Both the position numbers and the translations under genes were made by a program. A stretch of 63,509 nt of DNA, filler included, from Licmophora abbreviata (taxonomy: Eukaryota): assembly GCA_900291995.1 (NCBI GenBank). It is 11 parts of 11 records of this genome, joined end to end, with 100 filler letters (N's around TTAATTAATTAA, not from the genome) between each part and the next. Parts side by side here need not be neighbours in the genome. Positions count along the whole stretch, not along the records: positions 1 to 9,797 come from OLMU01005630.1; positions 9,898 to 12,673 come from OLMU01005632.1; positions 12,774 to 17,333 come from OLMU01005634.1; 8 more parts are not named here. The stretch is one strand, 5' to 3'. This document shows positions 1-59,061 of this stretch, in pieces (the stretch's first letter is position 1; each line of letters begins with the position of its first letter). The notes below the pieces were generated by a model. It made no database searches, was not told the DNA's origin, and worked only from the letters and a program-made list of their open reading frames with translations.

Positions 1-2852
1 GGATGCTGCCGATGGACTTTTACGGGTTTGTGTGAGACACTCGGTGGAAGCTTCCCGCTAAGAGACGAGCCCATCGTTGACCCAGGCCGTGGCGCAGAGG
101 GCTCATCTTCGTCTTTCGGTCCAAAATCGTAAGGTACCAGCTTGGGACCCTCTCCGTCTTTGCCGCTCTCCGGAGGAGCCCATTCTCCTTTGAAATCTAG
201 GTCTTCCGGAAGCGTCTCTCCCTCAAGTGGATTCTGCGGTGGTTCGTTTCCAACACCAAAAGCCGAAATGTCCCCTCCACCTCCGTCCAAACCTTGCCCA
301 TACATTTCTGGTGGAGATAATGACGGTCCCGTGTCCGATCCACCTTGAGGGGGCGAGATTGCGCTCCCTCCAGGTGGTTGTTCCATTCGTGGGCCCCCGT
401 CGGGTGCAGCATCATAGGAAGAAACGTCTCCATTCATACCATAAGACGCTGTGTCGCCGTTCATACCGTACGATGCTGTGTCGCCGTTCATACCGTATGA
501 TGATGTATCCCCGTTCAAACCGTATGATGAGGTATCCCCGTTCATACCGTATGATGAGGTATCTCCGTTCATACCGTATGATGAAGTATCTCCGTTCATA
601 CCGTATGACGAAGCATCACCATTGGTACCATAGGACGACGACATTCCACTATCTCTTTCAGGCTTTCCTTGCCCAGACTTGAAATTGTAGGGGCTAGGAC
701 CCATTCCAGGTCCAAAACTGCCCTTACTCGCACCCGGACTGGCAGAAGAAATCGATTCCTCACCCATGAGTGACCCACTGTCCTTGAAATCAAACGGTTG
801 GACACCAGGACCCCCACCCGGTCTCGGACCACCTCCGTTCATACCATAGGGCGGCATGCCCCCATTCATTCCGTAAGGCGGCATTTCCCCGTCCATACCA
901 TAGGGCGGCGGCATTTCCCCATAATTACCATAGGGTGACATGTCTCCGCCGTACGGGTCCCCATCTTCTTCTTGTCCAGATTTGAACATATACGGACTGG
1001 GGCCCATTCCAGGTCCGGGACCAGTTTTACTTGCACCAGACATTCCCATGTTCGATTGGTTTGGGGGTGGTCTATCTCCATTCATACCATAAGGTGACGC
1101 GCCCATGCCTGATCCGCCTTGCGGCGCAGAGGGACCTCCTCCTCCAGGCGGTGGTCGCATCCTCGGACCCTCATCTGGACGGTTGCCATACGAGGACCTA
1201 TCTCCATTCATGCCATAAGACGATACGTCTCCGTTCATGCCATTAGAGGACCTGTCTCCGTTCATACCGTACGACGATTGATCTCCGTTCATACCATTCG
1301 ATCCTCCATCCCCATTCATACCATATGAAGTATCACCATTCATACCATAAGACGATGTATCTCCGTTCATGCCATAAGACGTGTCACCATTCATGCCATA
1401 CGACGCCGTATCTCCATTCATTCCATAAGACGATGCATCTCCATTCATTCCATAAGAAGGCATTCCACTGTCTCGTTGAGGCTTTTCTTTTCCAGACTTG
1501 AACATGTAAGGGCTAGGTCCCATACCGGGTGCAAACCCACCAGCGCCGGGGGGCGATTTCATGCCTGACTTCGATCCATCTTGCGGCGGAGGGCCTCCTT
1601 GAGGCGACGGCCTAGTTTGTCGAGGTGAAAAGGACTCCGAGCTGGGGCCTTTTGCTGGCCTGTAGCCACTACCGTTGACACCAGAAGACGACATCGACCC
1701 GGCTGGAGGAGCGCTTCCTTTCGGTGGATACTGCGGCGACGTGCGAGCACTTCCGTTAACACCAGAAGACGGCGTCGACCCAGGTTGCGGCGCTGACGGT
1801 GCACTTCCTTTCGGAGGGGCCTTGCTATCGCCGAAACTACCCCTTCTGGGACCCTGCTGCGATGCATCACCGCTTCCGTTTACACCAGACGACGGAGTCG
1901 GTCCGGCCGGCGGAACCGACGGAGCGCTTCCTTTGGGTGGCATCTTGCTCTTCCCATATGACGTGTATAGGTCCGGATTAACTCGATTCGTATCCGTTTC
2001 CTTACCCCCACTTTGAGTCCAGCCTCTCGTGGAGATGCCCATGCTCGGTCCCCCCTGCGACGGCGGCCCGCTTCCCTTGGGGGGTGGCGCCCTGTCCTCA
2101 AAGTTGTAAAGTTTAGGACCCTGCTTTGGTCGTCCACTTCCGTTCAAACCAGAAGACGGCGGTTGTCCGCCCTGTGGTGGGCCTCCTCTCGGTGGCGGCC
2201 TGGCCTGCGTGTATATCTCCGAGCTGGTCTTCGAAGTATTTGCACCGCCACCCGCTGGCCAACCTCTGTTGGACGGCGGTGGTCTGGAACCGAGCTGCGA
2301 TGATTGCTGATCAGACGGCTGGTTGGTCTTCGGCTTGGCCTCTCCCCCTTGTGGATTCTCTGGGGACCACTTTCCAGAGTTTCCAAGAGACAGGTTGCCG
2401 ATATTTGAGGACGAACGGGGGCCGGATTGAGTGGGTCTCTCTGGTGGTGTCCTCTTCGAAAATGAAAAAATATCCATCACATTCGGGCCCGATAGTTTCG
2501 ATTCCCCTCTGTTCGGAGAGCCCTTCGGAAAAGACGGTCTACGCAGCCCTGCAAAAGGGTTCCCGGGCCCCGACGAGCCGTCAGCAGGGGGCGTTTGGTT
2601 CATTGGAGCTCCACTGTCTTCGCCTTGTTGGCTACTCTCCTCTGGCCCGCTGCTAGACTCTTCGTTCCCACCATCTGACTCTGGGAAAGGGTCGCTGGGG
2701 TCGGACTGCATGTTCCAGCCGATTCTGTTGCGTGGAAGAGCCATGACAGGTCTGCTGTGGGCGCCACTGCGAAACGTAAACGTGAATCCAGCGGCAGGCC
2801 GAGGCCAAGCGAGAGCCATCAGCAGCGGGACAGCAAACATCGAACGAGTCAT
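1..2852 (-). CDS. Plastid-targeted low-complexity repeat protein 1 (Gly/Ser/Pro/Tyr-rich, prion-like); 3' end runs off the window
   Basis: Not in the ORF track because it has no stop in the window. ATG at 2852 reads MTRSMFAVPLLMALAWPRPAAG|FTFTFRSG. Translated segments are open down to base 3, and no track ORF ends in this frame (~950 codons). Contains many SYGMNGD repeats, 3x GMGPSPYxFKSG and 3x PPKGSAP...SSGVNGS. The + strand ORFs 451-633 and 1675-2016 are its antisense shadows. Confidence 0.8.
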   Translation of the reverse strand, partial: MTRSMFAVPLLMALAWPRPAAGFTFTFRSGAHSRPVMALPRNRIGWNMQSDPSDPFPESDGGNEESSSGPEESSQQGEDSGAPMNQTPPADGSSGPGNPFAGLRRPSFPKGSPNRGESKLSGPNVMDIFSFSKRTPPERPTQSGPRSSSNIGNLSLGNSGKWSPENPQGGEAKPKTNQPSDQQSSQLGSRPPPSNRGWPAGGGANTSKTSSEIYTQARPPPRGGPPQGGQPPSSGLNGSGRPKQGPKLYNFEDRAPPPKGSGPPSQGGPSMGISTRGWTQSGGKETDTNRVNPDLYTSYGKSKMPPKGSAPSVPPAGPTPSSGVNGSGDASQQGPRRGSFGDSKAPPKGSAPSAPQPGSTPSSGVNGSARTSPQYPPKGSAPPAGSMSSSGVNGSGYRPAKGPSSESFSPRQTRPSPQGGPPPQDGSKSGMKSPPGAGGFAPGMGPSPYMFKSGKEKPQRDSGMPSYGMNGDASSYGMNGDTASYGMNGDTSYGMNGDTSSYGMNGDTSYGMNGDGGSNGMNGDQSSYGMNGDRSSNGMNGDVSSYGMNGDRSSYGNRPDEGPRMRPPPGGGGPSAPQGGSGMGASPYGMNGDRPPPNQSNMGMSGASKTGPGPGMGPSPYMFKSGQEEDGDPYGGDMSPYGNYGEMPPPYGMDGEMPPYGMNGGMPPYGMNGGGPRPGGGPGVQPFDFKDSGSLMGEESISSASPGASKGSFGPGMGPSPYNFKSGQGKPERDSGMSSSYGTNGDASSYGMNGDTSSYGMNGDTSSYGMNGDTSSYGLNGDTSSYGMNGDTASYGMNGDTASYGMNGDVSSYDAAPDGGPRMEQPPGGSAISPPQGGSDTGPSLSPPEMYGQGLDGGGGDISAFGVGNEPPQNPLEGETLPEDLDFKGEWAPPESGKDGEGPKLVPYDFGPKDEDEPSAPRPGSTMGSSLSGKLPPSVSHKPVKVHRQH
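425..640 (-). repeat. 27-bp coding tandem repeat (YGMNGDTSS)n; degenerate copies also at ~830-945 and ~1190-1465
   Basis: + strand unit ccgttcataccgtatgatgaggtatct, ~7 copies. Confidence 0.9.
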
Positions 2853-3297
2853 TTTGTGAGAGAAATTTCAACCTCGAAAATGCTTTCAGGGAGGACTACG
2901 AAACTGGTGCAGCGTCGTTCTCTTGCCATTGGAGGCACAGGACGGTTTTCTTTTTGAAAGTTCTAGTGGCCGAAGATACCGGTAGACCAAGCTGCTTCGT
3001 GTCATCTGCAGAGGCGTGTCTGTTTGTCTGTGATGCGGTGCAGCAACGACAAACGGCTGGCAAAAAAAGAACGCGCAGAGCGGTTGGCAGATAAGATATC
3101 GATTTTTGATCAGGCGACTGGCCACCGTTCTTGGACTGAAAACCTGCAGGTAATAAGTAAAATGTGTTGAAGTACGTACGTATTAAATAAATACACTGAC
3201 GCACTCATGAGTAGTCAGAACGCGCGAGCCGACCTGAGCTCAACATGATTGTTGCTCAAAACTGGATGACAGCCCACCACCGCTACCGATCGTCACA

Positions 3298-3310
3298 CGT
3301 AGAAAGCTAC
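3298..3310. promoter_or_regulatory. Shared upstream element CGTAGAAAGCTAC (gene 1)
   Basis: Same GTAG-N4-CTAC motif found upstream of all five cluster genes; ~450 bp upstream of ATG 2852. Confidence 0.5.
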
Positions 3311-3831
3311 CTTGTTCTTCTACGCTAATGTCACATACGACGCCTAATATATTCATTTGCATCAGAACGCCAGTCGACAGTCCAAAACAAGAGAGCGCTC
3401 CTGCTCTTACACAAGGCGGCGAGCTAAGGAGTGAGTCGACTCGTTGCGATGTCAGCCCTCTACTTAGAAGTTCGTATCATACAATCCGCTTCTCAGGTAT
3501 GGCTACATGTCAGGAAGTACACATCTGCACAGAAGGGGTGCTCGTAGACTGCATAGTATTCGGTCCTTCAGGGGTGGACCAAAAACTCGTTTGACTTGCA
3601 ACACAATCGCTATCCAAACTACCTGTGAATTTCTACAAGCAGGAAGGCGATTCGTTCAACGATACTGTGACCGTGTGCATGCCATTTCTTACAGAAAACT
3701 ACGAGTACCACCTCTATCCACTATAGCTAGAGACGACACTGCTCTTACAATTCTTAAGCCTGTTCTTCACACCCGATGGCATCGTACCAACCACTCACTT
3801 TGTATGATTACTTAATTTCGTCTTCCGTGGA

Positions 3832-6800
3832 TTACTTGTAGCTGTTCATTTCGAATGTCTTGGTGTTGAAAGACCCGCTGTTGGACCCAGATGCCGGCGG
3901 AAACACGTAGTCGCCCTTGTTCGCGTCGGGACGCTCCTCGACTCTAGTGCTGCCTTTCACGCGGCTAGCGAATGTGTTCATGGCTGCCTGGTATGGCTGT
4001 TCAGTAGCACATACCCTGTCCACCTTTGGTTTCTTTCCTCTTGTCGCACCTGAGAAGCTCGACATGGCTCCGTGATACGGTTGTTCCGGAGACCACGCCC
4101 GAGCCGTCTGTGGGATCCCACCTCGCAACGGTTTTCTTGGTCCGTCTACTAGACGGCCACCAGGGGAGCCACCGTAAGCACTCGTCTTCGACACAAGTTT
4201 CCGAGACGAGTTTCCGATTGCACGACTCGGTGGCGAGGAAATGACTCCTCTCTCTGGGTCTTTTCTTGTCACACTACGAGCGGGAGGCTTTACGTTCAAC
4301 CCGGGTGGGAACGCTGACATGGACTGCCGTGCATGTTCCCATGCCCGGTTGGCCTTGGCTCGCACCCCCATAGCAGGGTTCTTCGCATCCTGTTTCACAA
4401 GGCCACCAGAAGGGTTCAGCACGGGACTCATTCCCCGAAGAGGTTTTCTCGGCGCAGAAGCTTGCTGAGCCGTGGATCCAAGCCTACGTCCAGCGAAAGC
4501 TTCCATGGCCCTAACAAGAGGTTGGCCCGTGCCAGTTCGGGGTTTCCCTCCTCTGAGCGGCGTCTTTGGTGGTCCTGAGCGGTAGCGTTGTTTCGGTCCG
4601 GACCGAGAATAGTTGACGGTCGTTCCACCCGCAAAACTCGACATGGCTTGCATATATGGCTGTTCAGGTGTCCCGACGCGGTCGGCACGCGGGTTTCGCC
4701 AAGATCCAGCGAACGCCCGTCTAGCTTCACGCTGCTCCACGTATGCGTCTACCTGATCTGCTACCTCCTCGATATAAGCAAGATGCTCTTTGCCCGCTTT
4801 GGCGGCATCACTGATCTCTGCGATATATCCTTCTGCCATGGGCGACGCTTGATCAGCAGCGGGGGGAGAGTAAGCATCTCGTGCCGCTGCGTTCGACAAG
4901 GCAGGTGCGGCAGCAGAGGTGCTCATGCTGTCAAGGTAGCCTCTACCCTTGGCTGCCGTCTTCGGCTTTCCTCTCGCGGGCATCTTTTTCACTGGGCTGC
5001 CACCGAGCGCCGTAAGGTAGTCTCCGCTAGCGGCCGCTGGTGTAGATGTCGTAGCAGGAGTAACAGGAACAGCATTAGGGGATGCGTGTGAAGCTGGCCC
5101 TGTTGAAGTGGAGGAGGGAGGTGTCGCAGCAGAGGTGCCCATATTGTCAAGGTAGCCCATACCCTTGGCCGCCGTCTTCGGTTTGCCTCTAGCGGGCATT
5201 TTCTTCACTGGGCCGCCACCCAGTGCCGTGAGGTAGTCGCCTCCCGCCGGAGTGTTCGGCCCGGACGCCGGAATCGACGAGAAGGCAGGAGCAGCGGGAG
5301 CAGCAGCGGCACCTGACCACGCTGGTGTCGCGACACTGCTCATGTTGTCCAGGTAGCCTCTACCCTTGGTCGCCGTCTTCGGCTTGCCTCTGGCAGGCTG
5401 CTTCGCCACTGCACCTCCACCGAGTGCCGTGAGGTAGTCGCCTCTGGCCGGAGTCGACGACAAGGCGGGGGCAGCAGGAGCGGCGCCCGACCACGCCGGT
5501 GTAGCGACACTGCTCATGTTATCAAGGTAGCCTCTACCCTTGGTCGCTGTCTTCGGTTTGCCTCTGGCAGGCTGTTTTGACACTGCACCTCCACCGAGCG
5601 CCGTGAGGTAGTCGCCTCCGGCAGGAGTGCTTGGTCCGACTGCCGGTGTCGACGACCAGGCAGAAGCAGCTGGAGCTGCAGGTGTGATCGTCACAGCACT
5701 GCCCATGTTATCAAGGTAGCCTCTACCCTTGGCCGCAGTCTTTGGCTTGCCTCTGGCAGGCTGCTTTGACACTGCACCTCCACCGAGCGCCGTGAGGTAG
5801 TCGCCTCCGGCAGGAGTGCTTGGTCCGACTGCCGGTGTTGACGACCAAGCGGAAGCAGCCGGTGTTGCAGCACTTCCCATGTTATCGAGGTAGCCTCTGC
5901 CCTTAGTCGCAGTCTTTGGTTTGCCTCTAGCAGGAATTTTCTTCACAGGACCTCCACCTAGTGCTGCGAGGTAATCTCCTTCGGCAGTTTTGCTCGTAGA
6001 GGCCGCCGCTGTCGACGACCAAGCAGGAGCAGCCTGCGTGCTCGACCTCGCCGGCGTCGCAACAGCACTACCCATGTTATCAAGGTAGCCTCTGCCTGCG
6101 GCCGCCGTCTTTGGCTTGCCTCTCGGAGGCTGCTTCAATACTGGACCGCCACCGAGTGCAGATAGGTAGTCTGCTCCAGCAGGATTGCTCGAGACGGCGA
6201 CCGGCGGAGAGATGGCAGCAACAGCCGGAGGAACACTTCTGACACGAGGAGGCGTTCGGGTCAAGGCCGAAAACTCGGGAAGGGGGGCATTCTGTGGATC
6301 TGCCATGAAGACATGCACTGACTGCGCGACGCCCTTCAAGTAGGAGAGGTAATCCTTTGCAGAGCTCACAGTGCCCTCCAAGTCGGACAAGTAGTCCATA
6401 GCTTCCACCGGAGTACCGGCTGGACTCGCTGCGACTGCGGTGCCTCCACCGTTCAAGTGTGCAAGCTTGGACCTGACGTCGTGGGCAAGTTGCTCCATGT
6501 AGTTCAGATAATCCATCGCCGAAAGGGCGGCCTTTTCAACATTCGCGAGATACTCCCTTACTTCCGCCGGGTTTTGGAGGTCAGGAAGATCAGCTCGTCC
6601 GCTGCTGAGCGATGGCGGTGGTGATCCCGGGGTCGATTCGAGATCTACTAGATAGGCTCTCACCACGGTCGCTACCTCCTCAAGATACCCAAGATACTCT
6701 TTCGCTGTTTCTGCACCAGCAGCGATCTGGTTGAGGTATCCACACGCCAATTTGAAACCTTCCTGTTCTGACTGGGACATCTGTCCTGCCATATCCATAT

Positions 6801-6984
6801 CGGAAAGAAGTCCACCGCCGACAGAAACTAAGCTTTTGGTAAGAACCTTCAGGTCCATGGCTGAATTGGCAAAGACAGACGCTGATGTCTTGACATACGA
6901 CGGAGGTCGCTGGACAAAGGCGGCTGCTCCGCCAAGGGCGCAAATTACGAGCATCGCCAGGGGCCTTGACATGGTCGATCTCAT
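3832..6984 (-). CDS. Plastid-targeted repeat protein 2 (1050 aa; 7x DYLxALGG-PARGKPKT-GYLDNM)
   Basis: Long ORF. Presequence MSRPLAMLVICALGGAAA|FVQRP. Four helical YLxx[LIV]...YLxY[LM]ExVA repeats, seven Ala/Pro/Lys-rich repeats, and C-terminal QPYxxAMxxF motifs. Confidence 0.88.
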   Translation of the reverse strand: MRSTMSRPLAMLVICALGGAAAFVQRPPSYVKTSASVFANSAMDLKVLTKSLVSVGGGLLSDMDMAGQMSQSEQEGFKLACGYLNQIAAGAETAKEYLGYLEEVATVVRAYLVDLESTPGSPPPSLSSGRADLPDLQNPAEVREYLANVEKAALSAMDYLNYMEQLAHDVRSKLAHLNGGGTAVAASPAGTPVEAMDYLSDLEGTVSSAKDYLSYLKGVAQSVHVFMADPQNAPLPEFSALTRTPPRVRSVPPAVAAISPPVAVSSNPAGADYLSALGGGPVLKQPPRGKPKTAAAGRGYLDNMGSAVATPARSSTQAAPAWSSTAAASTSKTAEGDYLAALGGGPVKKIPARGKPKTATKGRGYLDNMGSAATPAASAWSSTPAVGPSTPAGGDYLTALGGGAVSKQPARGKPKTAAKGRGYLDNMGSAVTITPAAPAASAWSSTPAVGPSTPAGGDYLTALGGGAVSKQPARGKPKTATKGRGYLDNMSSVATPAWSGAAPAAPALSSTPARGDYLTALGGGAVAKQPARGKPKTATKGRGYLDNMSSVATPAWSGAAAAPAAPAFSSIPASGPNTPAGGDYLTALGGGPVKKMPARGKPKTAAKGMGYLDNMGTSAATPPSSTSTGPASHASPNAVPVTPATTSTPAAASGDYLTALGGSPVKKMPARGKPKTAAKGRGYLDSMSTSAAAPALSNAAARDAYSPPAADQASPMAEGYIAEISDAAKAGKEHLAYIEEVADQVDAYVEQREARRAFAGSWRNPRADRVGTPEQPYMQAMSSFAGGTTVNYSRSGPKQRYRSGPPKTPLRGGKPRTGTGQPLVRAMEAFAGRRLGSTAQQASAPRKPLRGMSPVLNPSGGLVKQDAKNPAMGVRAKANRAWEHARQSMSAFPPGLNVKPPARSVTRKDPERGVISSPPSRAIGNSSRKLVSKTSAYGGSPGGRLVDGPRKPLRGGIPQTARAWSPEQPYHGAMSSFSGATRGKKPKVDRVCATEQPYQAAMNTFASRVKGSTRVEERPDANKGDYVFPPASGSNSGSFNTKTFEMNSYK
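4920..6180 (-). repeat. Seven ~165-210-bp coding repeats in repeat protein 2
   Basis: Recurrent + strand blocks catgttatcaaggtagcctctaccctt... and ccaccgagcgccgtgaggtagtcgcc... Confidence 0.9.
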
Positions 6985-7195
6985 TCTGTGCCTTCTCTTT
7001 CAAGCCTCACGATCAGGAGCAGCGAGGTTTTGACAGACAAGGCTGATGGATTTTACAACTTTGATGGCAATGCGATCTTTTTTTCTGTTGGATGGATCTC
7101 TGTGATTGCTCTGTGATGATGCCTCCTGCAAAAGATCGGCACAAAATCACCGTCACGCACAAATCAAAATTCACCATGGCTCGGCTAGCTCCAAA

Positions 7196-7213
7196 TGCGT
7201 AGAAACCTACGCA
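7196..7213. promoter_or_regulatory. Shared upstream element TGCGTAG-AAAC-CTACGCA (gene 2), perfect 7-bp inverted repeat
   Basis: ~215 bp upstream of ATG 6984; matches consensus CGTAGAAANCTAC. Confidence 0.6.
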
Positions 7214-7826
7214 ATGTTTGAAATGTGGAAACCTACACAAAAGTCAAATTTTGAAATGGACGGCTCAGAGGCACTCGTACGTCATTATTGGCTCATATCC
7301 CATCTTACATTGCTAGCACAACACACAAACCAAACGATCTAACTCAAAGGACCTTGTTTCTTGTATTACTCATATCAGAATTCATCTTAAATGTTAAACA
7401 ATCATTGCAATTGAAGCCGCCGTCGGTTAGACTTGTCTACGGGAAGGCGTTCTGGTGGTGCTGGACTTTGGCACCTACTTAGAAGACTATGGTTAGATAG
7501 CCTTCTTGTACCTGGGAGTTAAAATGCAACGCATATGATCCCCATCACATGATCTACATTTCACCCTTTTGGTCGACACCAGGAAGGGAGCTGGTTCACA
7601 TCGTTACCTACCGTAGCTACGAAGCTACGCTACTGCGTGTTTGTCGACGCAGAAACGAAGGCTATTGTTTAAAATAGTAAGGCAGCTCTACTTGACTTCA
7701 AGGGCCGTTCCTATCTACATCGTACTGAAAGCTGATCTCTGTACTGACATGCCTCGCACACGAAGACTTCCATCATGCAACGTAAGTTTGCCCGCTTTTG
7801 ACTATTTGAAGTATCCTGCACTAGAT

Positions 7827-9377
7827 CTAGGGCGCGAAACCGGACATCCGAGTGCCGTTGGCAAAAACGACCTTCCTCGCTTTCATGCTAACTGATGTCC
7901 TGGTGGGGGTGTAGCTAGTTGTCTCGCTTGTGTCGGCCGGGCTGCCCGCGACTGGTTTAGAAATAGCGACCCTCATACGTTCGGAAGTGCGCACCGTCAC
8001 CAACTTGCCATCCATACTGATAGCATCGGCGCTTGATTTCTCGTAGCTATCCGCAGATAGAGGAGAGAGAAAGCCCGCGTAAGCCTCCATATACGAGGCG
8101 CTCGGTTCCAGTGTCGCAGCACGTTCGTTCGCTGCAAGAAACGATGACCGTTTTGACACCCGAGTGGGATGTACGTCAGGCTTCCTTGACATCTTCCTCC
8201 AAGGATTGCCAGTCCGGCCAGAGGAAAGACCGTTGGGGGCCGCCACCATTGCTTCCAGCGGAAGTTTTGCGGCCTTCGGGGCACTCGTGGCTCGTTCGTG
8301 AGGAGCCATACTATCGGTAGGCCCACATCCCTGCGGTAGCAGTGTTACGCTATCGGTCGGCGCGGCTTTCTTTGCCATCGCGAAGTATTTCCTCATGTTT
8401 GACTCCGTTCGAGGCGGTCCCGAGACATTTCCATCCGTTCCAGACGCAGCGAATCCCGACATGGCCATTCCATGAGGCGTTTCGTTGGACGAAAAGGGCT
8501 TCTGCTTGAGCCTGACGGCTTCTGTCCTTGGAGCAACCCTCGAACGTTCGATGTATCCAGACGGGGCGCTACGATGAGTGGCCGTACTTGTCCGACTTGC
8601 AGGCAGAGAAGATAGCTCTCGTTCTGTTGTCTTTGGCGGTGAGCTCTTTGCGAGCGCGAAGTAGCTTCTCAGTGTTGAGTCCGTCCGACGTTTCGTGTAC
8701 GTTTTCCCGTCTCGACCGGATGCATCGAAGGCCGCCATGGCCCTTTCAAAGGGCGCATCATGCATTGAAAGTGTCTTTGGTTTAGCCCCCGCCATGGACG
8801 AGTTTCTCAGGGGTCTATTGGAAGACTCCATGGATCCAGCTGAAGCAGTGTTGCACGAAGATACCATGTTCGATTCACGCGGATGTGAGTTATCGGCTGG
8901 ATTTGTCTCTGTCGCCGGGGCCTTTAGAAGAGCAGAGCTATTCTTGATCGTCCCAGGCTCCAACTGAGGATTTGATCCCGTTCCTCTTTTCCTTTCGGAG
9001 GATACAAACGAAGACACCGTTCTGTGATACTGTAATCCATCGTTCGATGAAGACGTCCTTCGGTGCCCTGGCTCTATGGAATCAGGAGGAATCATTCTGA
9101 GATACGGTCGGATCTTCGACGAAGGCTGTCGCTCCATCTCCTTAGATGGTACACTGCTACTCTTTGGAAAGGAGAAGTCAACCCTTGCAGCCGACTGAGT
9201 TCCCGCGGACCTGTCCACAGCGACCGAATTGGTTTTTGGCGCGTCTCCCCTGAGCAGTTTCTTCAATCTCGCTTCTGACATAATCCTACGAAAGCAGGCG
9301 CCGGGAACAAGCGTAAACCCAGCTGCAACGTGAAGCAGCGTTGCTAGCAGCATCACAGCCTGCATCAACCGCATCAT
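7827..9377 (-). CDS. Plastid-targeted Ser/Arg-rich disordered protein 3
   Basis: ORF 7827-9440. Likely start MMRLMQAVMLLATLLHVAAG|FTLVP at 9377 (in-frame upstream ATG at 9437). Two repeats PF/HxxAMxxFxASGxDG...RTxSx[LM]RxYFAxAK. N-terminus paralogous to gene 4. Confidence 0.8.
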   Translation of the reverse strand: MMRLMQAVMLLATLLHVAAGFTLVPGACFRRIMSEARLKKLLRGDAPKTNSVAVDRSAGTQSAARVDFSFPKSSSVPSKEMERQPSSKIRPYLRMIPPDSIEPGHRRTSSSNDGLQYHRTVSSFVSSERKRGTGSNPQLEPGTIKNSSALLKAPATETNPADNSHPRESNMVSSCNTASAGSMESSNRPLRNSSMAGAKPKTLSMHDAPFERAMAAFDASGRDGKTYTKRRTDSTLRSYFALAKSSPPKTTERELSSLPASRTSTATHRSAPSGYIERSRVAPRTEAVRLKQKPFSSNETPHGMAMSGFAASGTDGNVSGPPRTESNMRKYFAMAKKAAPTDSVTLLPQGCGPTDSMAPHERATSAPKAAKLPLEAMVAAPNGLSSGRTGNPWRKMSRKPDVHPTRVSKRSSFLAANERAATLEPSASYMEAYAGFLSPLSADSYEKSSADAISMDGKLVTVRTSERMRVAISKPVAGSPADTSETTSYTPTRTSVSMKARKVVFANGTRMSGFAP

Positions 9378-9514
9378 CTTGAACAAACAGCTTTTTCTGT
9401 TGCGTTGATTTTTGATTTTGTCATTGTGATGATCCATCACCCATCACCCATCACTCGCGCCAGTTTTGAATTTCGAAATTGGAAGGAAATGTCAAGTGCG
9501 CGAGTAGAGATTCG

Positions 9515-9527
9515 CGTAGAAATCTAC
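9515..9527. promoter_or_regulatory. Shared upstream element CGTAGAAATCTAC (gene 3)
   Basis: 138 bp upstream of ATG 9377. Confidence 0.6.
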
Positions 9528-9797
9528 AGGAAAAAGTCGACCAACAATCCAGCGTGCGTTCCACATCCGCATTATTGATATTTTGTTATGTGAGAGGTCG
9601 AACGCCAAGGAACAATGATGGAAGTTTGAATCAATGTTGCCGATGGCCCTGGCGGGAGTGGACCGATAGACTAGGAGAGTCTAGTAGACCTAGAGACTAC
9701 CGGTAGTGCATTCGAATCCTTTCTATAATGGCCTTTCATAGAACGTTAGTACAACTTAGTCAGGTGCAATGAGTGTCATTTTTTAAAATCACTCTTT

Positions 9798-9897
9798 NNN
9801 NNNNNNNNNNNNNNNNNNNNNNNNNNNNNNNNNNNNNNNNNTTAATTAATTAANNNNNNNNNNNNNNNNNNNNNNNNNNNNNNNNNNNNNNNNNNNN
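9798..9897. other. Artificial contig spacer (N44-TTAATTAATTAA-N44); identical spacers at 12674-12773, 17334-17433, 20675-20774, 26421-26520, 31357-31456, 39469-39568, 58852-58951, 60128-60227, 62157-62256
   Basis: Exactly 100 bp each, with a six-frame stop linker. Confidence 0.98.
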
Positions 9898-11422
9898 ATG
9901 GCCATGCGACCCAGGGTGTGATAAACTGCCTTTAGACTCTGACAAGCCGTCCTGTCGCTTCGGTGTCGTGCTCTTCGTGTGCGCGAATGAACTCCGCGAC
10001 GATGACCGGGCTGGAAGTCTCGCTGCCGCCGTCCCGTCCATCTCGGATGCTGCCAGCGACGGCAAGCTATCGTATGATGAAGTGCCTCTTTTCTTATCAG
10101 ACGCGATGGGAGGAACATTTCTAATCGACGACGGGCGAACGATCGACCCAGACTCAGACACGTTGCCATTCGGCTCTGGTGAGCTCCCTTTCGGCTTGGG
10201 TGCCGTCTTTTTCATTGGCGCAAAGAGACTCCTCAACGATGAGCCTGTGGGAAGCGCCGCTGCCGTCTCCTCATCCTTTTCGGAATCCGTCAACAAAGGT
10301 GCTTCTTCACTATTTGAAGTCCCTTGCTTCTCAGCCTCGCTGGAGTCAGAAGGAATACTCATGGTGGATGACGGGCGAGTACTCGACCCAGGCTTCAACA
10401 TGCTTCCATTTATACTCCCAGACATTGGCAATAAGCTTTCGTTTGGTGTCATGTTCTTTATGGGTGCCAAGTCCCTCTTCTGCGGTGAGACCCTTGGAGC
10501 TCCCGCCTCCACCATTCCATCCCTTTCGGATGCTACCAACGACAGCGATTGTTCGTGAGATGAAGATGGCTCCATCTTCTCAGCCTCACTGGAGTCAGAA
10601 GGAACACTCATGGTGGATGACGGGTGAGTACTCAACCCAGGCTTCATCACGCTTTCGTTTCTATTCGCAGACACTGGCAAGCTTTTGTGCGGTGTCATGT
10701 CCTTTATGGGCGCCAAGTCGTCACTCTTCTGCGGTGAGACCCTTGGAGCTCCCGCCTCCACCACTGCATCCCTTTCGGATGGTTCGTGAGATAAAGATGT
10801 CCTTTTCTTCTCATCCTGTGTAGAATCGGAAGGAATATTCCTGGTGGATGGTTGGCGAATAGTCGACCCAGGAATCATCACGTGTTCGTCATTATTCACA
10901 GATACTGGCAAGCTTTCTTTCGGTGTCATGCTCTCTGTTGGCGCGATGTCACTCCTCTGCGGTGTTCCCGTTGGATCTTTCGCTGCCACGTTTCCATCCA
11001 TTTCGGAGGATACCAACGAAGGTGAACTCTCGTGCGGTGGAGACGCCGCCTTTGTCTCAGCCTGAATGGAATCAGAAAGCGATTTTCTGGTAGACGATGC
11101 ACGAACATTCAATCCAGGCTCGGGTACGTTTTCTTCGCTGTCCGGTTCGCTCTCTTTAGAGTCTGCTACACATTCTTTGGAATCTGGCGCGCTAGCTTTT
11201 AGGTTCAGGCTCGTCGGCAAACTTTGCAAAGAAGAATTCATCGCTCACAGAAGAGGCGGACAGAGAATTTGGATGTAATTTTCGCATTTCTCCATTGAAC
11301 AGTTTCCTCAATCGCGCTTCTGAAAGAATCGTCCGAAGAGAGGCACTGCGAGGGGGCGTAAACCCAGTCGCAAGCGTTAGCCACACTGTCAGTAGCAGGA
11401 CAGCCTGCATGAACCGCATCAT
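9898..11422 (-). CDS. Plastid-targeted Ser/Pro-rich repeat protein 4 (apparent frameshift at ~11197-11200; 3' end in gap)
   Basis: ORF 11192-11422 (MMRFMQAVLLLTVWLTLATG|FTPPRS) joins ORF 9850-11241 if one A is removed from CCTAAAAGCT, giving ...EPEPKASAPDSKE. About five ~70-aa repeats (PGSSTRPSST..IPSDS..AEK...SE[RMK]DG...LAP[IM]KxxTP). Confidence 0.75.
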
Positions 11423-11560
11423 CGTGAAGAAACCGGTTCGAGTTTGAGTTCTCTTTTCTCCATGGTGATTCTAAGCTCAGAGTTCAGAACTTCAAAGCGT
11501 TTCAATCTTTAAGTCGATTTTGTGTCTGTATACTACGAAGTACTAGGTACCAGATGTTTG

Positions 11561-11573
11561 CGTAGAAACCTAC
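11561..11573. promoter_or_regulatory. Shared upstream element CGTAGAAACCTAC (gene 4)
   Basis: 139 bp upstream of ATG 11422. Confidence 0.6.
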
Positions 11574-12080
11574 GGGAGAGCACTCTGTACGTCGTACGTT
11601 GGGAGTGTATGAACACAGAAGATTCGATCCCCAGCGTTTCATTAAACTTTCACAAGAAAGTATTATCTTTTATGAGAGTACGCACGTTGGAGAGTGATCG
11701 ACGACGCAGACAAGCATACACTGCACACACCAGAGTCAGTCAGACGCTTTGCGTTTGAAGGGCTATCTGCACTATCGTCGATTGGCGGCGCCGAGTTACA
11801 CACTGTGCTGCATCGGTAGACCCTGCCGTTTGCACCGTTATCAGCCACCCATCACACTTCCACCTACTGTAGAGAGTAAACTGTACTTGTATGGGCAAAC
11901 ACATCTTGTTAACCTTAGCTCTGCGATGTTTGAAATGATGGTATCATGTCGGTACTGTCGCCTGGTCGGCTTTAGCGATGGCGCTCGACTGCTCGGGAAT
12001 TTTCTTGTGTCCTCGCTCTCCTCCTGAACTAGTCGATGCGAATTGCTCTCGTCTGCAAATTCGCTAAAAATATTGTCGAA

Positions 12081-13392
12081 CTAGGAAGCCAAGCTCTGAA
12101 CCCTGGTCCCATCAATCCTAGACGACACAAACTCGGTCATGGCTCTAGCATAAGGCGATTCTACGGACGAAGCAAATGAAAACTCCGCCGGCTTGGGTTG
12201 ATGAGACCCGGGTGGAACATTGTTGAGAAACGGCTCGAGATTAGACCCTGCCACTGGCGCACCACCGCTCGGGCGCGCTGTGCTCGTGGCAAGTGCCGAT
12301 GTAGAGGTCGCGGAGTTCGCCGTCGAGCTCGCTACGAGAGCCGCCGTGTTCTTGATTGGTGTCAAGTTACGGGGTCCTGCAACCCTTCTCCCATCGATGC
12401 CGGACAGCATAAACTCTGCCATGGCTCTTTCATAGGGGGTTTCTACTCTCGATGCAAAAGAAGCCTGTTCTCGGTTCGCGGGCCCGGGATAGCCCGGTGG
12501 GACATTGTTGAGGAAGGGCTCCAGATTCGAACCTCCCCGAGGTGCTCTCACAGCTGGAAAATCAGCGCTGGTCGTAAGCGCGGAGCTGCTCTTTGTCAGG
12601 GTTGAGGCAAACAGGGACGTCTTGGTTGCGAAAGCTGGTTTCACGTTCAACCCTGATTTGATGGATCCGTGTGNNNNNNNNNNNNNNNNNNNNNNNNNNN
12701 NNNNNNNNNNNNNNNNNTTAATTAATTAANNNNNNNNNNNNNNNNNNNNNNNNNNNNNNNNNNNNNNNNNNNNTTGGCGGGTGCAGCCTCTTCCACTGCA
12801 GCCTCTTTCGGTGCAACAGCCGTGTCCTTGGCGCTGGTCTCCTTGGCAGTTGCACTCTTCTTGTTGGGTGCCAGCGTTTTGGCAGCAGTACCCGTAGTAG
12901 TAGCAGCAGCAGTGGTGGTGGCGCGTCTCGCTACCCTCCTCCCATCGATCCCCGAAAACAGAAACTCCAACATGGTCCTCTCGTAGGGCGATGCTTCCTT
13001 CGATTCAAATAAGCGCGCCAGATTCAAGCGAATGTCCTTGTAGTAAGAGCCAGGTGGGACATTAAAGAGAAACGGCTCACTGTCCGAACGCGGAGCCCTC
13101 TCTTTCGCCTGTGGTGGTGTAGTAGTCGTCGTTGTTACGAAACCACTACTCTCCGTGTTGCTCCCGTCGGAGATGATAGAAAGACCTTGTGTAGCATTCT
13201 GGTCGTATCTTTTTGACTGCTGCTGCTAGTAGCTGGGACGGACCCTGCTGCATGATGTGAGAAACTTCGTCCCTGCGAGCCTATAGAGCCACTGTTGATG
13301 AATGGAGCAAATTGTAGCGTGAATCCAGCCACAAGCTGTGACCCGCACAGAGCCATCAGAAGCGGAAGAACGTGTGCAGAGAGAATCAACAT
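12081..13392 (-). CDS. Plastid-targeted repeat protein 5 (spans gap 12674-12773; apparent frameshift at ~13210-13214)
   Basis: ATG 13392 MLILSAHVLPLLMALCGSQLVAG|FTLQF. Adding one A in CAAAAAGA links it to the frame RYDQNAT...EPFLFNVPPG...SPYERTMLEFLFSGIDGRRV. The same repeat (EPFLNNVPPG...PYERAMAEFMLSGIDGRRV) occurs twice more after the gap, in ORF 12081-12650. Confidence 0.75.
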
Positions 13393-13575
13393 CCTGACAG
13401 AGAGACTGAGAGAGGGTCTGCAGAAGTGCACTCACTTGTCTATTAGTCTACTGTCGTGTGGAAGTGAGTGTTAACCGAACGTGAGAATCGAATCAACCTG
13501 AAAACTGAAAATCCATTCTTGCGTGGTGCAGTTTTGAGTGTTGAAGCGAGCTCTCGTCGGCCGGTAATGATTTCG

Positions 13576-13588
13576 CGTAGAAATGCAC
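13576..13588. promoter_or_regulatory. Shared upstream element, variant CGTAGAAATGCAC (gene 5 / divergent ALDH)
   Basis: 184 bp upstream of ATG 13392; TTCGCGTAGAAAT is identical to the gene 3 site. Confidence 0.45.
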
Positions 13589-13914
13589 TTCACGGCATTT
13601 CAGTCGAAGGATTCTAACACTCCTGCACGGTCGTGAGCGAACTTGTACAAACGGAAGGGTTTGCTGACGACTACTAAGTATCGTAGTATACTGGCGCGAT
13701 AGGAATTGGATGACGTGTTTTTAGTTTTTAGCTCGAAGTCGCAACAGACGCAACGTCGCAGTGTCGGATATATCTGGTTAACCTAACTGCTTACCGTCCA
13801 TGGCATTGCTTTCATCGATAAAACCTTGCAACGTTAGCGAGAACGACCGCAAGCCGCAGCCCCGCAAGAAGCAATCCGAGCTCCTCCCTCCCGAAGTACC
13901 GGTGTGAGTAGAGA

Positions 13915-17032: not shown

Positions 17033-17729
17033 GATAGCCTTCTATATTTCTTGGCTCGTCGCGGTCGATAAAGAGCGTCTTGCAATGCAATTTGATGAAG
17101 AAGATCTTGGTCGAGAGTCAAGTCGAGAGTGTGCTGAAAGTTGTTTTCAGCGCACCAGCAAGAAGCGACGTATCATATCATGCGGGTAGTATAGTAGTAG
17201 TATCGTATGATATGTATGATACAGGTACCGGTGTGCGTACCTCTAGTAGCCAAAAATAGGTATTTATTGTATACATCTTTTAAACTTTTGAATGACAAAA
17301 TGTGGGATAAGTATCATTACCGTTGGGCTATTANNNNNNNNNNNNNNNNNNNNNNNNNNNNNNNNNNNNNNNNNNNNTTAATTAATTAANNNNNNNNNNN
17401 NNNNNNNNNNNNNNNNNNNNNNNNNNNNNNNNNATGAGGCCGATGCTGCTGGTACCCCGTTACCATAAACGGTTGGGAATCTATTTTCCGTTGCAGCCAG
17501 TACCTATACATAGCTCGGACCTACCATCCACAGGCGCATTTGTCTGTATGTCATTCTTGTAAAGGGATCGTCGTCTAAACAACTGACTCGACTCACTCCT
17601 TCCCATTCAGTAGACCTAGGAGTTTGTCCAATCAAGATTGTTTTTCTACATGTAGCAAGGTCTTTGAAAAGTCGCATTTGTCCCGAGATGCGTGGTAGAT
17701 CTACCATCCACCAGCGCATTCTGGGGATG

Positions 17730-19751: not shown

Positions 19752-20927
19752 TCATATCCCTCCATCAGAACAGAGGTGCTTGATTTGATAGGAGTAGACG
19801 CCCTCGATCTTGTCGACCAACTCGGTGGCGTTCACCCACAAAGGCTGGTCGCGCGCAAAAATGTGTGCCAAAGGCCCTGCCCTGGTACTCAAGCCAAGCG
19901 ATTCGAGATACTCCGTTACGGGCCCATAGTCTCCAGGTTGTAGCAGTGAGGGAAGTCTGTTCAAAAACTCCTTGATTGCCGAAGCATTGTACTTCAGTCG
20001 GGCTTTGAGAGCAAGTGTCAACTTCTCTACTTGACCTGGATCAGGGGGCATGGCTGGTTGAGGGACCTCTAAAATGGAATAGTTGTGCAGTCCGTGATCA
20101 GCTGCAATATTCCTGTAGCCTTCGTGGACAAAGCCAAAGGGAGTAATTTCAATGACAGCAGCGTCATTGGGCACAAAGTGCGCTAGCCAAAGCCCTTGTC
20201 CATGTGCCGCCACCAGTATCGAACGGCTGCTTGCAAACTCAATTTGCTGTCGAAACGTCTTGAGATCCGGTTCCAGTGTAAGGTCCAGATACTGGTATTT
20301 AATCCTCCGTCGCTGAAGTTCAGTCTCAATCTGAGGAAAGTTCTCAATGTAGCGTGCTCGGTTCGTGGAATTGAGGAAGCGCAAGACGATTGTAACTTTC
20401 GGCGGGCATTCGATTTTCGGTGGAGGGAGCGACAAGGCTGATCGTATCCTTTCAAGGTAAGCGTTGTAGGCTTGTCGCTGCACGCCTGTTATGTCCCAGT
20501 GATGGAATGCATTGGTTGGTGATATCTGTCCAAGCGAGGCGTTTGCGAAACAGGTGTACCGACGCTTGTCGTCCAGAATTTCGTCGGCGTGCTTGTCTGA
20601 GAAGTCTGTCACTCGGCCGAGAACCGTCCGTTGTTCTTTTACCCCTAGCATGGAAACAAACTGTAGGTAGGAGANNNNNNNNNNNNNNNNNNNNNNNNNN
20701 NNNNNNNNNNNNNNNNNNTTAATTAATTAANNNNNNNNNNNNNNNNNNNNNNNNNNNNNNNNNNNNNNNNNNNNAGTACTAGTACTAGTAGGAGTAGCAC
20801 AATTCCCAACGAGGACCAATCTCAGTAGCACTTCATAGTCCAGCGTCAGCCATTGGACTGCTGCTAGAATGAAGATTGAAAGGCCAAAGACTGCACTCTT
20901 AAAGGCTCTGTGACGCCTCACGCCCAT
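19752..20927 (-). CDS. Glycosyltransferase family 61 (DUF563), type II membrane; spans gap 20675-20774
   Basis: FRQQIEFASSRSILVAAHGQGL...AVIEITP catalytic-region motif; N-terminal MGVRRHRAFK + TM segment (ATG 20927) on the other side of the gap. Confidence 0.75.
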
Positions 20928-25900: not shown

Positions 25901-26412
25901 TTGGTGCTGTGCTCTTCGACTTGCAGCTGCAAGGAAATGAACTCACGGGAACATTGCCAACAGAACTGAGTCAGTTGCAGGCGCTGCTTCGACTCAATGT
26001 CACACAACAACTCGGAAACGGCTTGACCGGTTCACTTTTGGACTTTTCACAGCTTACTGACCTCAAAATATTTGACGTGTCGTTGAATGATTTCACAGGA
26101 GACATACCAACGAATCTTAACGCCTTGACGTTCACGACCATATTGAACCTCAACTCGAATCGACTTTCCGGTCCGATACCATCTGAACTTGGACTCATGA
26201 TAGGCTTGGAGGAGGTTCGCTTGAGCGACAATAATTTGACTGGCAGTATTCCGAGCGAACTTAGCAATCTACTTCTCCTTCAGGTGCTGGATGCCTCCGA
26301 CAATACCTTGACGGGATCTATCCCCGTGTGCACGCTGCCAGAGATTAGCAGCGTCGAGGTGGACTGTGAGGAGGTCTTATGCCAGTGTTGTGAGGGATGT
26401 AGTGGCAGATAG
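22961..26412 (+). CDS. Secreted Pro/Ser/Thr-stalk leucine-rich-repeat protein (apparent frameshift at ~25675)
   Basis: Signal peptide, PS/PT-rich stalk, QRYCLSTLFF...W...CNWFGVSC cap and plant-type LxLxxNxLxGxIP repeats. ORFs 22961-25756 and 25636-26412 join by adding one G (KELGNLENL). Cys-rich end VDCEEVLCQCCEGC. Confidence 0.85.
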
Positions 26413-26883
26413 TAGAGTAGNNNNNNNNNNNNNNNNNNNNNNNNNNNNNNNNNNNNNNNNNNNNTTAATTAATTAANNNNNNNNNNNNNNNNNNNNNNNN
26501 NNNNNNNNNNNNNNNNNNNNCACTTTGTAATACAAATTATTTCGCAGAAAGTCATAAATATGGATGACCCTCTTTTTAATTTGCATCGCGCCGAAATAAT
26601 TTTGCGACACAAACTTGGATTTATCGACTGCAGTCGGATGACCATCACACATCGCTCTATTGGACGAACGTAAAACGAGAGGCGCTTGGTCTTTGAAAGT
26701 CACGAAAACAGACGCAGAGAAGGGTTCTTTGTGTATACGTAAGACTGCTGCGTACTAGAGCTAAGAGAGAAGCCTTCTCAGTTCAGTTCAGGGTGAAACG
26801 TCGACACATTGAGTCCTAGTCCGACGACACACGAGACAGGTCACTTGCAGTTTAAATTTCCACAGCAATCGACAATCCTCAGA

Positions 26884-29800: not shown

Positions 29801-30084
29801 ACCAGTTCCTTACTGGAACAATCCCCGAGTCACTCGGGAACTTGCTGGATCTGAAGCGACTCTCTCTTTACAACAACACATTCACGGGCGAGATCCCGAC
29901 ACAGTTGTCGAACTTGCTTGAATTGGAGGTCGGTCTGTTTTTCACGAATGAGCTCACAGGCACCGTTCCTGAGGGCGTATGCGACATTGCTCGAAACGAA
30001 AACTTGACCATTCTAGTAGTAGATTGCGCGGGTGATGACCCCGAAGTTCAGTGTGCCGCCGACTGCTGTTCGGAATGCTTATAG
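26884..30084 (+). CDS. Secreted Pro-rich-stalk LRR protein, paralog of the previous gene; introns 28418-28519 and 28664-28744
   Basis: Signal peptide MHSFSKRLLLGVALSLL; APxAP stalk; QTYALNTLFF..W..CDWVGVEC cap; GTGAGT..TAG and GTGAGT..CAG introns restore the LRR register; C-terminal VDC...CAADCCSEC. Confidence 0.88.
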
Positions 30085-57478: not shown

Positions 57479-58073
57479 TTACGTACTAACACGAGCATTG
57501 ATGCGTTCGTTGAAGGTACGAGGAGAAGCAGGAAGCGCCGTAAAGTAGCGCTCGTATTTCTTGAACATGTCCTTGTCGTGCTTCGTGAGTCCCTCGATAC
57601 TGTAGATGTCCTTCACCTTTTCATAGGGACCATGGCTGGCAATCTTTCCGGCTGCCGAGGGGAACATGCCCGGCAGCTGCTTGTAGTCACCCTGCAGCAT
57701 ACAATGACGAGAGTGAGCGAAATCTAGTAACCCAATTAGCGAGAACTCTATTTCATGCCGTCACGAGCCATGACCTGACTTTTGTACTCACCACGAATGC
57801 GGAGTTCAGATCGAGCTTATCTCCCGTTGCTTGCTGAGCAGCAACGATCTCATCATCACGTGCAAAGATCCTGTCGGATCCAATGCCCGCCTGGGACTGG
57901 TAGGCCGACTGGTAAGCAGTGGCAGGACCCACGGCGAGAAAGGCAAGGCCAGTCGCGAGCATCTCACGACGATCGACCATCTGCAGTTTCGTGGTCTTCT
58001 TGGTAAGGCGAGTGCTGGGGGCGAAGGCGAAACACGCCAAGGGCATGAGAGAAAGAAAGGCAAAAATCTTCAT
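57479..58073 (-). CDS. psbU: Photosystem II 12-kDa extrinsic protein PsbU(-like); intron 57692-57791
   Basis: MKIFAFLSLMPLACFA|FAP presequence, RR lumenal peptide (DRREMLA..ATA), KLDLNSAFVGDYKQLPGMFPSAAGKIASHGPYEKVKDIYSIEGLT. Confidence 0.85.
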
Positions 58074-59017: not shown

Positions 59018-59061
59018 GGCGCGGGCCTTTTGGATGTCGAGTTGCTCATCATGTCGCTCGT

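Follow-up and report, generated by a model that had tools for sequence, protein, structure and literature searches.

A large share of global CO2 is fixed in the pyrenoids of diatoms. The Rubisco linkers EPYC1, PYCO1, CsLinker and SUPA1 make up a functional class, not a homology family, and the criteria applied in searches for further linkers are a largely disordered sequence with repeating elements that are 20-120 residues apart (PMC11570498) and, again from the literature, an isoelectric point (pI) above 8. The only Rubisco linker known from diatoms is PYCO1 of Phaeodactylum tricornutum (Phatr3_J49957), which has a pI of 10.03, Trp/Tyr stickers and a repeat period of about 80 amino acids (aa), is not conserved, and is missing from centric diatoms; the short, Met-containing helix AAEWGSMNQ near its C-terminus binds the large subunit, and the authors note variants of this helix in other proteins. 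In the accessible part of a 2026 review, PYCO1 is the one linker named for diatoms. In Thalassiosira pseudonana, the relatively abundant protein DPC2 localises to the pyrenoid matrix, is a hub of the Rubisco network beside RbcS, and has been named a strong candidate for matrix assembly (bioRxiv 10.1101/2023.10.26.564148); as stated in the same preprint, repeats at the anticipated interval of about 60 aa occur in none of the T. pseudonana pyrenoid proteins of Nam et al. Here we analyse five minus-strand genes (genes 1 to 5, positions 3-13392) in a window of 63,509 nucleotides (nt) of DNA from Licmophora abbreviata, for which the original prediction was a tandem cluster of plastid-targeted, disordered repeat proteins that form a pyrenoid or condensate scaffold.

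The best-supported reading for gene 2 is pyrenoid scaffolding, with a probability that we put at about 0.45. The product of this gene, a motif-level relative of DPC2, appears to have been elaborated in one lineage from a plastid family that occurs throughout the diatoms. For genes 1, 3, 4 and 5, a pyrenoid role is suggested by association: genes 3 and 5 would be linked to it only through a motif in the tail of gene 2, gene 4 through its apparent paralogy with gene 3, and gene 1 solely through its neighbourhood. The predicted scaffold family has thus gained real, albeit indirect, support for gene 2, namely the DPC2 match and seven basic modules, and an argument by association for the rest.

Gene 2 and its family

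The sole Pfam match of gene 2 is PF25195 (DPC2, 'Diatom pyrenoid component 2'; 105 profile positions), which is matched below its threshold in six stretches (E = 2.9e-13, 50.6 bits); the best of these, aa 458-553, lies within the central module array. The array consists of seven near-identical modules of 34 aa, DYLxALGGxxVxKxPxRGKPKTAxxGxGYLD[NS]M, which start at aa 272, 337, 395, 458, 516, 583 and 655, that is, at spacings of 65, 58, 63, 58, 67 and 72 aa, and are separated by Ala/Pro/Ser/Thr spacers, with Trp in most of them and AWS[SG] in the first five. Tyr-Leu motifs flank each module, and the array is also apparent in the DNA, with a period of 174/363 nt over positions 5136-6189. Seven modules at 58-72 aa fall within the range expected of linkers (at least three repeated elements at 20-120-residue spacing), and the pI values of the entire protein (9.96) and of the array (10.3) exceed 8.

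A phmmer search of 1.84 billion representative sequences with gene 2 as the query yielded 28 relatives at E<=1e-3, of which 22 were at E<=1e-10 and the best at 2.1e-59; they are 28-70% identical to gene 2 over the matched stretches (61% for the best relative). Of ten relatives that were looked up, nine are metagenome or assembly proteins without names, and one, P0026 (GKY90407.1), is listed as a 'hypothetical protein' from Mayamaea pseudoterrestris, a raphid diatom. A word-indexed homology search with gene 2, which compared it with only about 8000 proteins of similar length, returned a single match, P0001, and an exact look-up of five window proteins found no identical entry in the collection searched. 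DPC2 is also matched below threshold by 15 of the 28 relatives (17-44 bits), with no match in the others. The same bipartite Tyr-Leu module forms regular arrays in three relatives: P0005, with spacings of 65-72 aa; P0016, a protein of 294 aa with four modules 57-65 aa apart, an NA/F leader (the slash marks the likely cleavage site throughout) and a His-rich tail; and P0026, a protein of 1256 aa with ten modules and seven of nine spacings in the range of 65 to 78 aa. P0016 appears linker-like in itself.

The N-terminal domain of gene 2, which precedes the array, can be aligned with 17 relatives, with nine invariant columns. AlphaFold2 predicts three long helices in this domain (residues 12-58, 80-119 and 133-169, or 47, 40 and 37 residues, respectively), with a mean pLDDT of 77 and a pTM of 0.53. 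A Foldseek search of this model against the Protein Data Bank (PDB) found nothing at E<=0.001, the best match, at E = 0.36, and the others being generic long-helix proteins. The sequence of gene 2 yielded two chance PDB matches (E>2), and the ESM Atlas returned no usable match for either aa 60-700 of gene 2 or P0008. A two-copy self-association model of the domain, computed without an alignment and with an uncertain partner fold, was uninformative (score 0.00). With significant similarity over its full sequence, helical N-domain included, gene 2 belongs to a diatom-wide plastid family characterised by a bipartite leader, a three-helix [DE]YLxYLE domain and YLD-type repeats.

Gene 2 differs from its relatives in three respects: it has no membrane segment, it contains seven near-identical modules, and it continues into a basic tail (350 aa, pI 10.4) that is matched by none of the 28 relatives. 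Within this tail, the strict motif EQPYxxAMxxF occurs at 4633-4659, 4054-4080 and 3970-3996, and a looser version, QPLVRAMEAF, at 4495-4521. The tail also holds the string AWSPEQPY.

The other genes and the shared motif

By composition, all five products are long, Ser/Pro/Ala/Gly-rich proteins, as originally described, with fractions of disorder-promoting residues between 0.61 and 0.68, grand average hydropathy (GRAVY) values from -0.26 to -1.04 and, judged by hydropathy, no transmembrane segment after the leader; both the disorder calls and the leader calls below were made by inspection and composition. Repeats can be seen in the DNA of all five genes, with tandem arrays in gene 1 (27 nt), gene 2 (174/363 nt) and gene 4 (249 nt). 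The pI is above 8 for genes 2, 3 and 5 (9.96, 10.4 and 9.2-10.1, respectively) and below 8 for genes 1 and 4. The description of all five as multivalent sticker-spacer proteins that lack a recognisable folded domain and repeat short aromatic motifs turned out to be too strong because gene 4, with 3 aromatic residues in 448, has no aromatic motif and hence no stickers, and gene 2, with a family match and a predicted helical N-domain, is partly folded.

A short motif, P[YFH]xx[AT]MxxF (in its fuller form, ExP[YFH]xx[AT]MxxF), is shared by the tail of gene 2, gene 3 and gene 5. The strict form has eight matches in the 127,014 residues of the six-frame translation of the window, all of them in the frames of gene 2 (three), gene 3 (two) and gene 5 (three). 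In gene 3, the copies APFERAMAAF (8727-8753) and TPHGMAMSGF (8451-8477) are each followed by SGxDG and RxYFAxAK; in gene 5, the motif is embedded in a larger unit, EPFLxNVPPG...[ST]PY[EA]R[AT]MxEF..S.IDGxRV, with motif copies at 12962-12988, 12411-12437 and 12129-12155. Gene 5 has at least three such units, the only gap-free spacing being 94 aa. The Tyr, Met and Phe of the motif occupy positions i, i+4 and i+7, which would place them on one hydrophobic face if the segment is helical. In a single-sequence AlphaFold2 model of gene 5 (positions 12084-12671), with a mean pLDDT of 49.7, helices 79-90 and 173-186 coincide with two motif copies, and the two best 10-residue blocks (pLDDT 64 and 67) fall on the same two motifs, the rest being of low confidence; this model weakly suggests that P[YFH]xx[AT]MxxF forms a short amphipathic helix.

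The similarity between genes 3 and 5 extends beyond the motif (BLAST, 34% identity over 120 aa, E = 4e-5), and the two appear to be paralogous, provisional orphans built round the shared helix. The leader exon of gene 4 is 52% identical to the N-terminus of gene 3 over 50 aa (BLAST), and its repeat units show weak collinear BLAST matches to the gene 3 and gene 5 units (E 0.3-4), with other residues in place of the aromatic ones and of Met. The ORF of gene 4 is rich in Ser (20.5%), and its units look like degenerate, sticker-less copies of the gene 3/5 unit, and gene 4 looks like a paralogue that lost the shared helix. Genes 2 to 5 are therefore linked, through either common ancestry or shared exons, and tandem duplication accounts for most of the cluster. 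By full-sequence similarity, none of genes 1, 3, 4 and 5 belongs to the helical N-domain family of gene 2, and none of the four has a Pfam match to DPC2; gene 3 matches no Pfam family at all. A metagenome scan with the gene 5 repeat alignment gave 88 pattern matches, one of which passed tblastn; this contig (L001, 14607 nt) was rejected as a gene 5 relative, being a spurious, phage-like sequence with a chance ...TPYERAM... match among ORFs that are, by eye, of the terminase, portal, capsid and tail-fibre types.

Gene 1 is of a different kind. It has no Pfam match of any sort, no PDB sequence match at E<=10, and no significant similarity to genes 2 to 5 except for a likeness of its leader to that of gene 5 (E = 0.09). 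Its product is rich in Gly (19%), Ser (15%) and Pro (14%), with 5% Met, 4% Tyr and no Cys, and its charge is split between an N-terminal part with a pI of 9.9 and a C-terminal part with a pI of 4.2; it contains 19 Y[GN][MLT]NG units (mostly YGMNGD), three GPSPYxFKSG repeats and one KWSP, and the 27-nt arrays are located at 427-608 and 1184-1457. This KWSP, the core of the small-subunit sticker of PYCO1, is the only one in the six-frame translation of the window (2361-2372, aa 161-164) and occurs as KWSPE. Among P0001-P0029 (29 proteins, 17,834 residues), KWSP is again found once, in P0010 (aa 354), which is a weak lead. A relationship between gene 1 and PYCO1 was considered and rejected, the defining PYCO1 motifs being missing: KWSP[RQ], GTGYNP and GYNP have no match in the six frames of the window. 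For genes 1 and 3, the word-indexed search detected no relatives at E<=0.01 among about 8000 near-length candidates, and because low-complexity words may have crowded out true relatives, their orphan status is provisional. Gene 1 appears to be an unrelated low-complexity Tyr/Met/Gly/Ser/Pro protein that is tied to the other genes by position and leader type only. The homology searches included in the original prediction have thus been productive for gene 2, with its 28 relatives and the sub-threshold DPC2 match, and detected no relatives of genes 1 and 3 among the candidates scored.

Table 1. Positions of the cluster genes, gene 2 regions, plastid controls and artificial linkers along the window
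Feature	Position	Strand	Description
Gene 1	3-2852	-	950-aa open frame (at least 950 aa), C-terminus runs past window start; leader PAAG/FTF
Gene 2	3832-6984	-	complete 1050-aa ORF, pI 9.96; putative DPC2-related YLD-repeat family member; leader GAAA/FVQ
Gene 2, N-domain	6199-6807	-	aa 60-262; three predicted long helices with [DE]YLxYLE signature; conserved family core
Gene 2, array	4915-6174	-	aa 271-690; seven modules
Gene 2, tail	3835-4884	-	aa 701-1050
Gene 3	7827-9377	-	516 aa from MMRLMQAV (in-frame ATG upstream at 9437), pI 10.4; leader VAAG/FTL
Gene 4	9898-11422	-	leader exon 11195-11422; +1-frame ORF 9898-11241 (448 aa), cut by linker; leader LATG/FTP
Gene 5	12081-13392	-	leader exon at 13138-13392; first repeat within 12774-13225 (+1 frame), second and third repeats and stop within 12081-12673; leader LVAG/FTL
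DUF3007	56638-57231	+	plastid control; Pfam 97.8 bits; leader SNG/FTI
psbU	57482-58073	-	plastid control; Pfam 58.8 bits, two exons; leader CFA/FAP
Linkers	9798-9897, 12674-12773, 17334-17433, 20675-20774, 26421-26520, 31357-31456, 39469-39568, 58852-58951, 60128-60227, 62157-62256		artificial

The window is assembled from 11 pieces joined via ten identical artificial linkers of 100 nt, N44-TTAATTAATTAA-N44 (Table 1), and because ORFs are truncated at the piece ends, apparent ORF stops within linkers are artificial. Genes 1 to 3 lie on a single continuous piece; the first linker separates this piece from the one that carries gene 4 and the 3' part of gene 5, and removes the 3' end of gene 4, and the second interrupts gene 5, part of which is missing there; the gene 5-type repeats on its two sides agree in strand and order. 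A PALP/CBS gene is collinear across the linker at 31357-31456, which separates PALP profile positions 1-102 from positions 186-295, both parts being on one strand; together with the gene 5 repeats, this makes the order and orientation of the pieces look real. The tandem cluster of five therefore stands as five nuclear genes on the minus strand with leaders, but its continuity is established for genes 1 to 3 only. In one sequencing run (X1, type guessed), 0.06 of the sampled words were found, and positions 1-9797 were represented by 10 short contig pieces without joints, uninformative on expression or splicing.

Elsewhere in the window, diatom-type, intron-bearing genes include psbU (two exons), DUF3007, the genes for proteins with leucine-rich repeats (LRR) and the PALP/CBS enzyme. 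Regions 22961-30084 and 33239-39520 hold a series of secreted-type genes with Pro/Ser/Thr/Ala-rich stalks, among them the LRR proteins and one protein that exceeds 2000 aa and combines a trypsin domain at its N-terminus with a module repeated five times. In the three short pieces at the end of the window (58952-63509), the GC content is 0.60-0.64, compared to about 0.51 elsewhere in the window, and the ORFs, which lack introns, are of bacterial type (an aldehyde dehydrogenase and two copies of an AT3/SGNH acyltransferase); these pieces could be contaminant contigs or horizontally acquired DNA.

Predicted plastid import, proposed pyrenoid scaffolding and the alternatives

All five genes encode a signal peptide followed by Phe, with precisely the junctions that had been predicted (Table 1). 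In the 25 residues from the Phe, the number of Lys and Arg is 1-6 and that of Asp and Glu 0-2, with the first acidic residue at +15 to +39; by inspection, all five leaders thus agree with the ASAFAP-type criterion, that is, a signal peptide, a small residue at -1, Phe at +1 and a transit-peptide-like, basic, acid-poor stretch. This criterion was also the filter for pyrenoid candidates in the work of Shimakawa et al. As anticipated, psbU and DUF3007 have the same signature and the same acid-poor stretch. The two control genes adjoin, and psbU has a lumen-type RRxxL stretch after its leader. In two secreted-type LRR proteins of the window, by contrast, the residue that follows the probable cleavage site, as judged by eye, is acidic (SG/D and RA/E). 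Among the gene 2 relatives that start with Met and a hydrophobic leader, 16 of 16 have Phe at +1 (15 A/F and one T/F). Because the leader type is shared by all five genes, both plastid controls and these 16 relatives, plastid import is well supported from sequence, in agreement with the original prediction, and the most likely destination of all five products is the plastid stroma, which they would enter by means of their bipartite leaders of the ASAFAP type.

Under the pyrenoid reading, gene 2 would act as a multivalent stromal scaffold in which the modules would serve as stickers. Their partner would be multimeric, with form ID Rubisco or some other component of the pyrenoid as the most plausible candidate, and the module spacing would be suited to cross-linking of this partner. 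We consider this scaffold reading a tentative proposal, with somewhat less than even odds; a Rubisco-linker role in particular would depend on multivalent Rubisco binding, which is putative here. The shared helix would address the products of genes 2, 3 and 5 to one common partner, in parallel to the shared Rubisco-binding motifs of green-algal pyrenoid proteins. For all three proteins, the partner, the location and phase separation are inferred. That the locus functions as a single pyrenoid or scaffold unit is doubtful. A still bolder version appears improbable: that gene 2, by virtue of DPC2-type Tyr-Leu modules at about 64 aa, is the Rubisco linker or a matrix-to-membrane tether of this diatom lineage, that P[YFH]xx[AT]MxxF is the pyrenoid-addressing helix of the clustered genes and corresponds, in the red lineage, to the Rubisco-binding motif shared by Chlamydomonas proteins, and that gene 1 is a co-condensing client or a second scaffold.

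Several observations weigh against pyrenoid scaffolding. The score of gene 2 (50.6 bits) is below the DPC2 gathering score of 70 bits, which leaves it formally outside PF25195, and none of its 28 relatives attains this score; the likeness to DPC2 appears to be limited to the YLD-type repeats, and the molecular function of DPC2 itself is not established (bioRxiv 10.1101/2023.10.26.564148). Many gene 2 relatives end with a hydrophobic segment followed by the C-terminal sequence D[DK]W[SEA]F, P0015 carries a helix similar to those of LHC and ELIP proteins, and the family may be thylakoid-anchored instead of matrix-resident. The WxF C-terminus is found in P0003, P0007, P0008, P0010, P0013, P0015, P0017, P0022 and P0024, with RWAF, YWAF and DWTF as variants; these members may form a subfamily that is anchored in a membrane and docks through its C-terminus. 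The shared helix is missing from all 28 relatives (29 fetched proteins, P0001-P0029), and support for this motif appears to be confined to the present locus, with no relatives of genes 1 and 3 detected in the word-indexed search and only the phage match for gene 5; an hhalign comparison of the gene 3/5 and gene 2-tail motif sets gave a probability of 70% over 15 columns, but these sets were selected by the motif, which makes the result circular. Genes 1 and 4 are acidic (pI 5.2 and 5.6, respectively), unlike the basic known linkers; genes 4 and 5 require putative splicing or else carry frameshifts; and the contiguity of genes 3 and 4, which would follow from their paralogy alone, spans an artificial linker.

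Some of the same observations would fit plastid-imported proteins without a pyrenoid role, such as thylakoid-associated, stromal structural or stress proteins or, in the case of the basic products of genes 2, 3 and 5, nucleic-acid-binding proteins of the nucleoid or of RNA granules, an alternative that we consider unlikely, albeit the main one. The frequent C-terminal membrane segment of the family, the LHC-like helix of P0015 and the sub-threshold status of the DPC2 likeness are in line with such a role, as is the presence of membrane-remodelling filaments of the ESCRT-III/Vipp1 type among the non-significant fold matches of the N-domain; however, gene 2 itself has no C-terminal hydrophobic segment (it ends ...EMNSYK, and its maximum 19-residue hydropathy after the leader is 1.08), and its sole curated family match is a pyrenoid component. 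Nucleic-acid binding would be compatible with the pI of about 10 of genes 2, 3 and 5 and with the RGKPK-type modules of gene 2, the Lys/Arg/Gly/Pro core of which we take to be loosely similar to AT-hook-type basic patches. Yet, this core is not kept as a GRP-type hook in the relatives (PPKEPPK in P0006, TPPPPKVV in P0016), in which the flanking Tyr-Leu motifs are conserved, and the AT-hook interpretation was set aside. A folded structure had been put forward as an argument against a scaffold; aa 60-262 of gene 2 are indeed predicted to fold (pLDDT 77), but the model of gene 5 is of low confidence.

A less probable view, which is compatible with the other readings, is that part of the array is debris, with gene 4 and possibly gene 5 being tandem duplicates in decay, from an orphan family that evolves rapidly, and with the shared motif no more than a leftover of common ancestry. 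The leader exons of both genes are out of frame with the main repeat ORFs, and hundreds of GT/GC-AG combinations would keep the frame open across the joining introns, such that no single choice is possible; the aromatic residues and the Met of the motif are gone from gene 4, and no relatives of gene 3 or of the gene 5 repeats were found in the searches described above. Against decay, long open frames remain (448 aa in gene 4, 150 and 196 aa in gene 5), the three gene 5 units retain 23 invariant columns of 58, and the 249-nt repeats of gene 4 are 88% matched; furthermore, the psbU intron is also located just past the leader region, which makes a leader exon followed by an intron a normal layout in this window. 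That the five products are secreted or located at the cell surface, as components of mucilage, adhesives or the wall, with a coincidental Phe after the signal peptide, is very improbable: the Ser/Pro/Gly/Thr-rich, repetitive, Cys-free composition resembles that of extracellular matrix proteins, several secreted Pro/Ser/Thr-rich LRR and protease genes are present in the same window, and the Tyr/Gly-rich repeats of gene 1 recall adhesive proteins (PYCO1 itself was compared to mussel foot proteins by its authors), but Lys accounts for just 3.8% of gene 1, and the Phe at +1 followed by a basic, acid-poor stretch in the five genes, the 16 relatives and both plastid controls stands against the acidic +1 residue of the secreted-type controls.

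Comparison with known systems

The original prediction knew of no described cluster of this kind, and consistently, a literature search, which extended to the accessible main texts but not to the supplementary tables of Shimakawa et al. and Nam et al., turned up no description of the gene 2 family architecture, of the shared helix or of such a cluster. DPC2-type motifs in a regular, basic, seven-fold array offer a concrete, testable hypothesis on the role of these motifs, and a helix common to three neighbouring genes is a candidate shared addressing motif. If either idea is true, the locus would provide new parts for understanding and engineering red-type pyrenoids; if neither is, it would still illustrate cleanly how disordered, plastid-imported proteins can form a tandem family specific to one lineage. 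Should gene 2 be a linker or tether, it would add a third solution, independent of PYCO1 and of the mechanism of Thalassiosira, which is yet to be identified, and the function of the DPC2-type repeats would be explained.

The leaders of genes 1 to 5, as read by eye, are like the ASAFAP-type bipartite presequences of diatoms in every part, with no difference noted. In its overall design, gene 2 seems linker-like on paper, yet it is neither a formal member of the DPC2 family nor a homologue of PYCO1, and no sequence relationship between any of the five proteins and PYCO1 was found. Like PYCO1, gene 2 is basic (pI 9.96 vs 10.03), is predicted to be plastid-targeted and, judged by composition, may be mostly disordered, with aromatic repeats at about 64 aa as compared to about 80 aa; the two differ in that the aromatic residue and Met are spaced W+3 in PYCO1 and Y+4 in the motif shared within the window. 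With DPC2, gene 2 has in common that it appears diatom-specific and plastid-targeted and that its fold is unknown, and its repeats match the DPC2 profile; it differs from DPC2 by the additional three-helix N-domain, the regular seven-fold array and the tail with another motif. The spacing of the gene 2 modules (58-72 aa) is near the expected value of about 60 aa, whereas the T. pseudonana pyrenoid proteins, as reported by Nam et al., lack a repeat at such spacing.

The green-algal linkers EPYC1, CsLinker and SUPA1 show no homology to gene 2, go with Rubisco of form IB rather than form ID, and differ further in their size, about 300 residues compared to 1050 in gene 2, and in the folded N-domain predicted for the latter. 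Nevertheless, gene 2, as far as its sequence tells, resembles these linkers in combining short putative stickers, spacers of tens of residues and a high pI, and the occurrence of one short motif, P[YFH]xx[AT]MxxF, in genes 2, 3 and 5 is similar to the distribution of a single short motif over several pyrenoid proteins in green algae.

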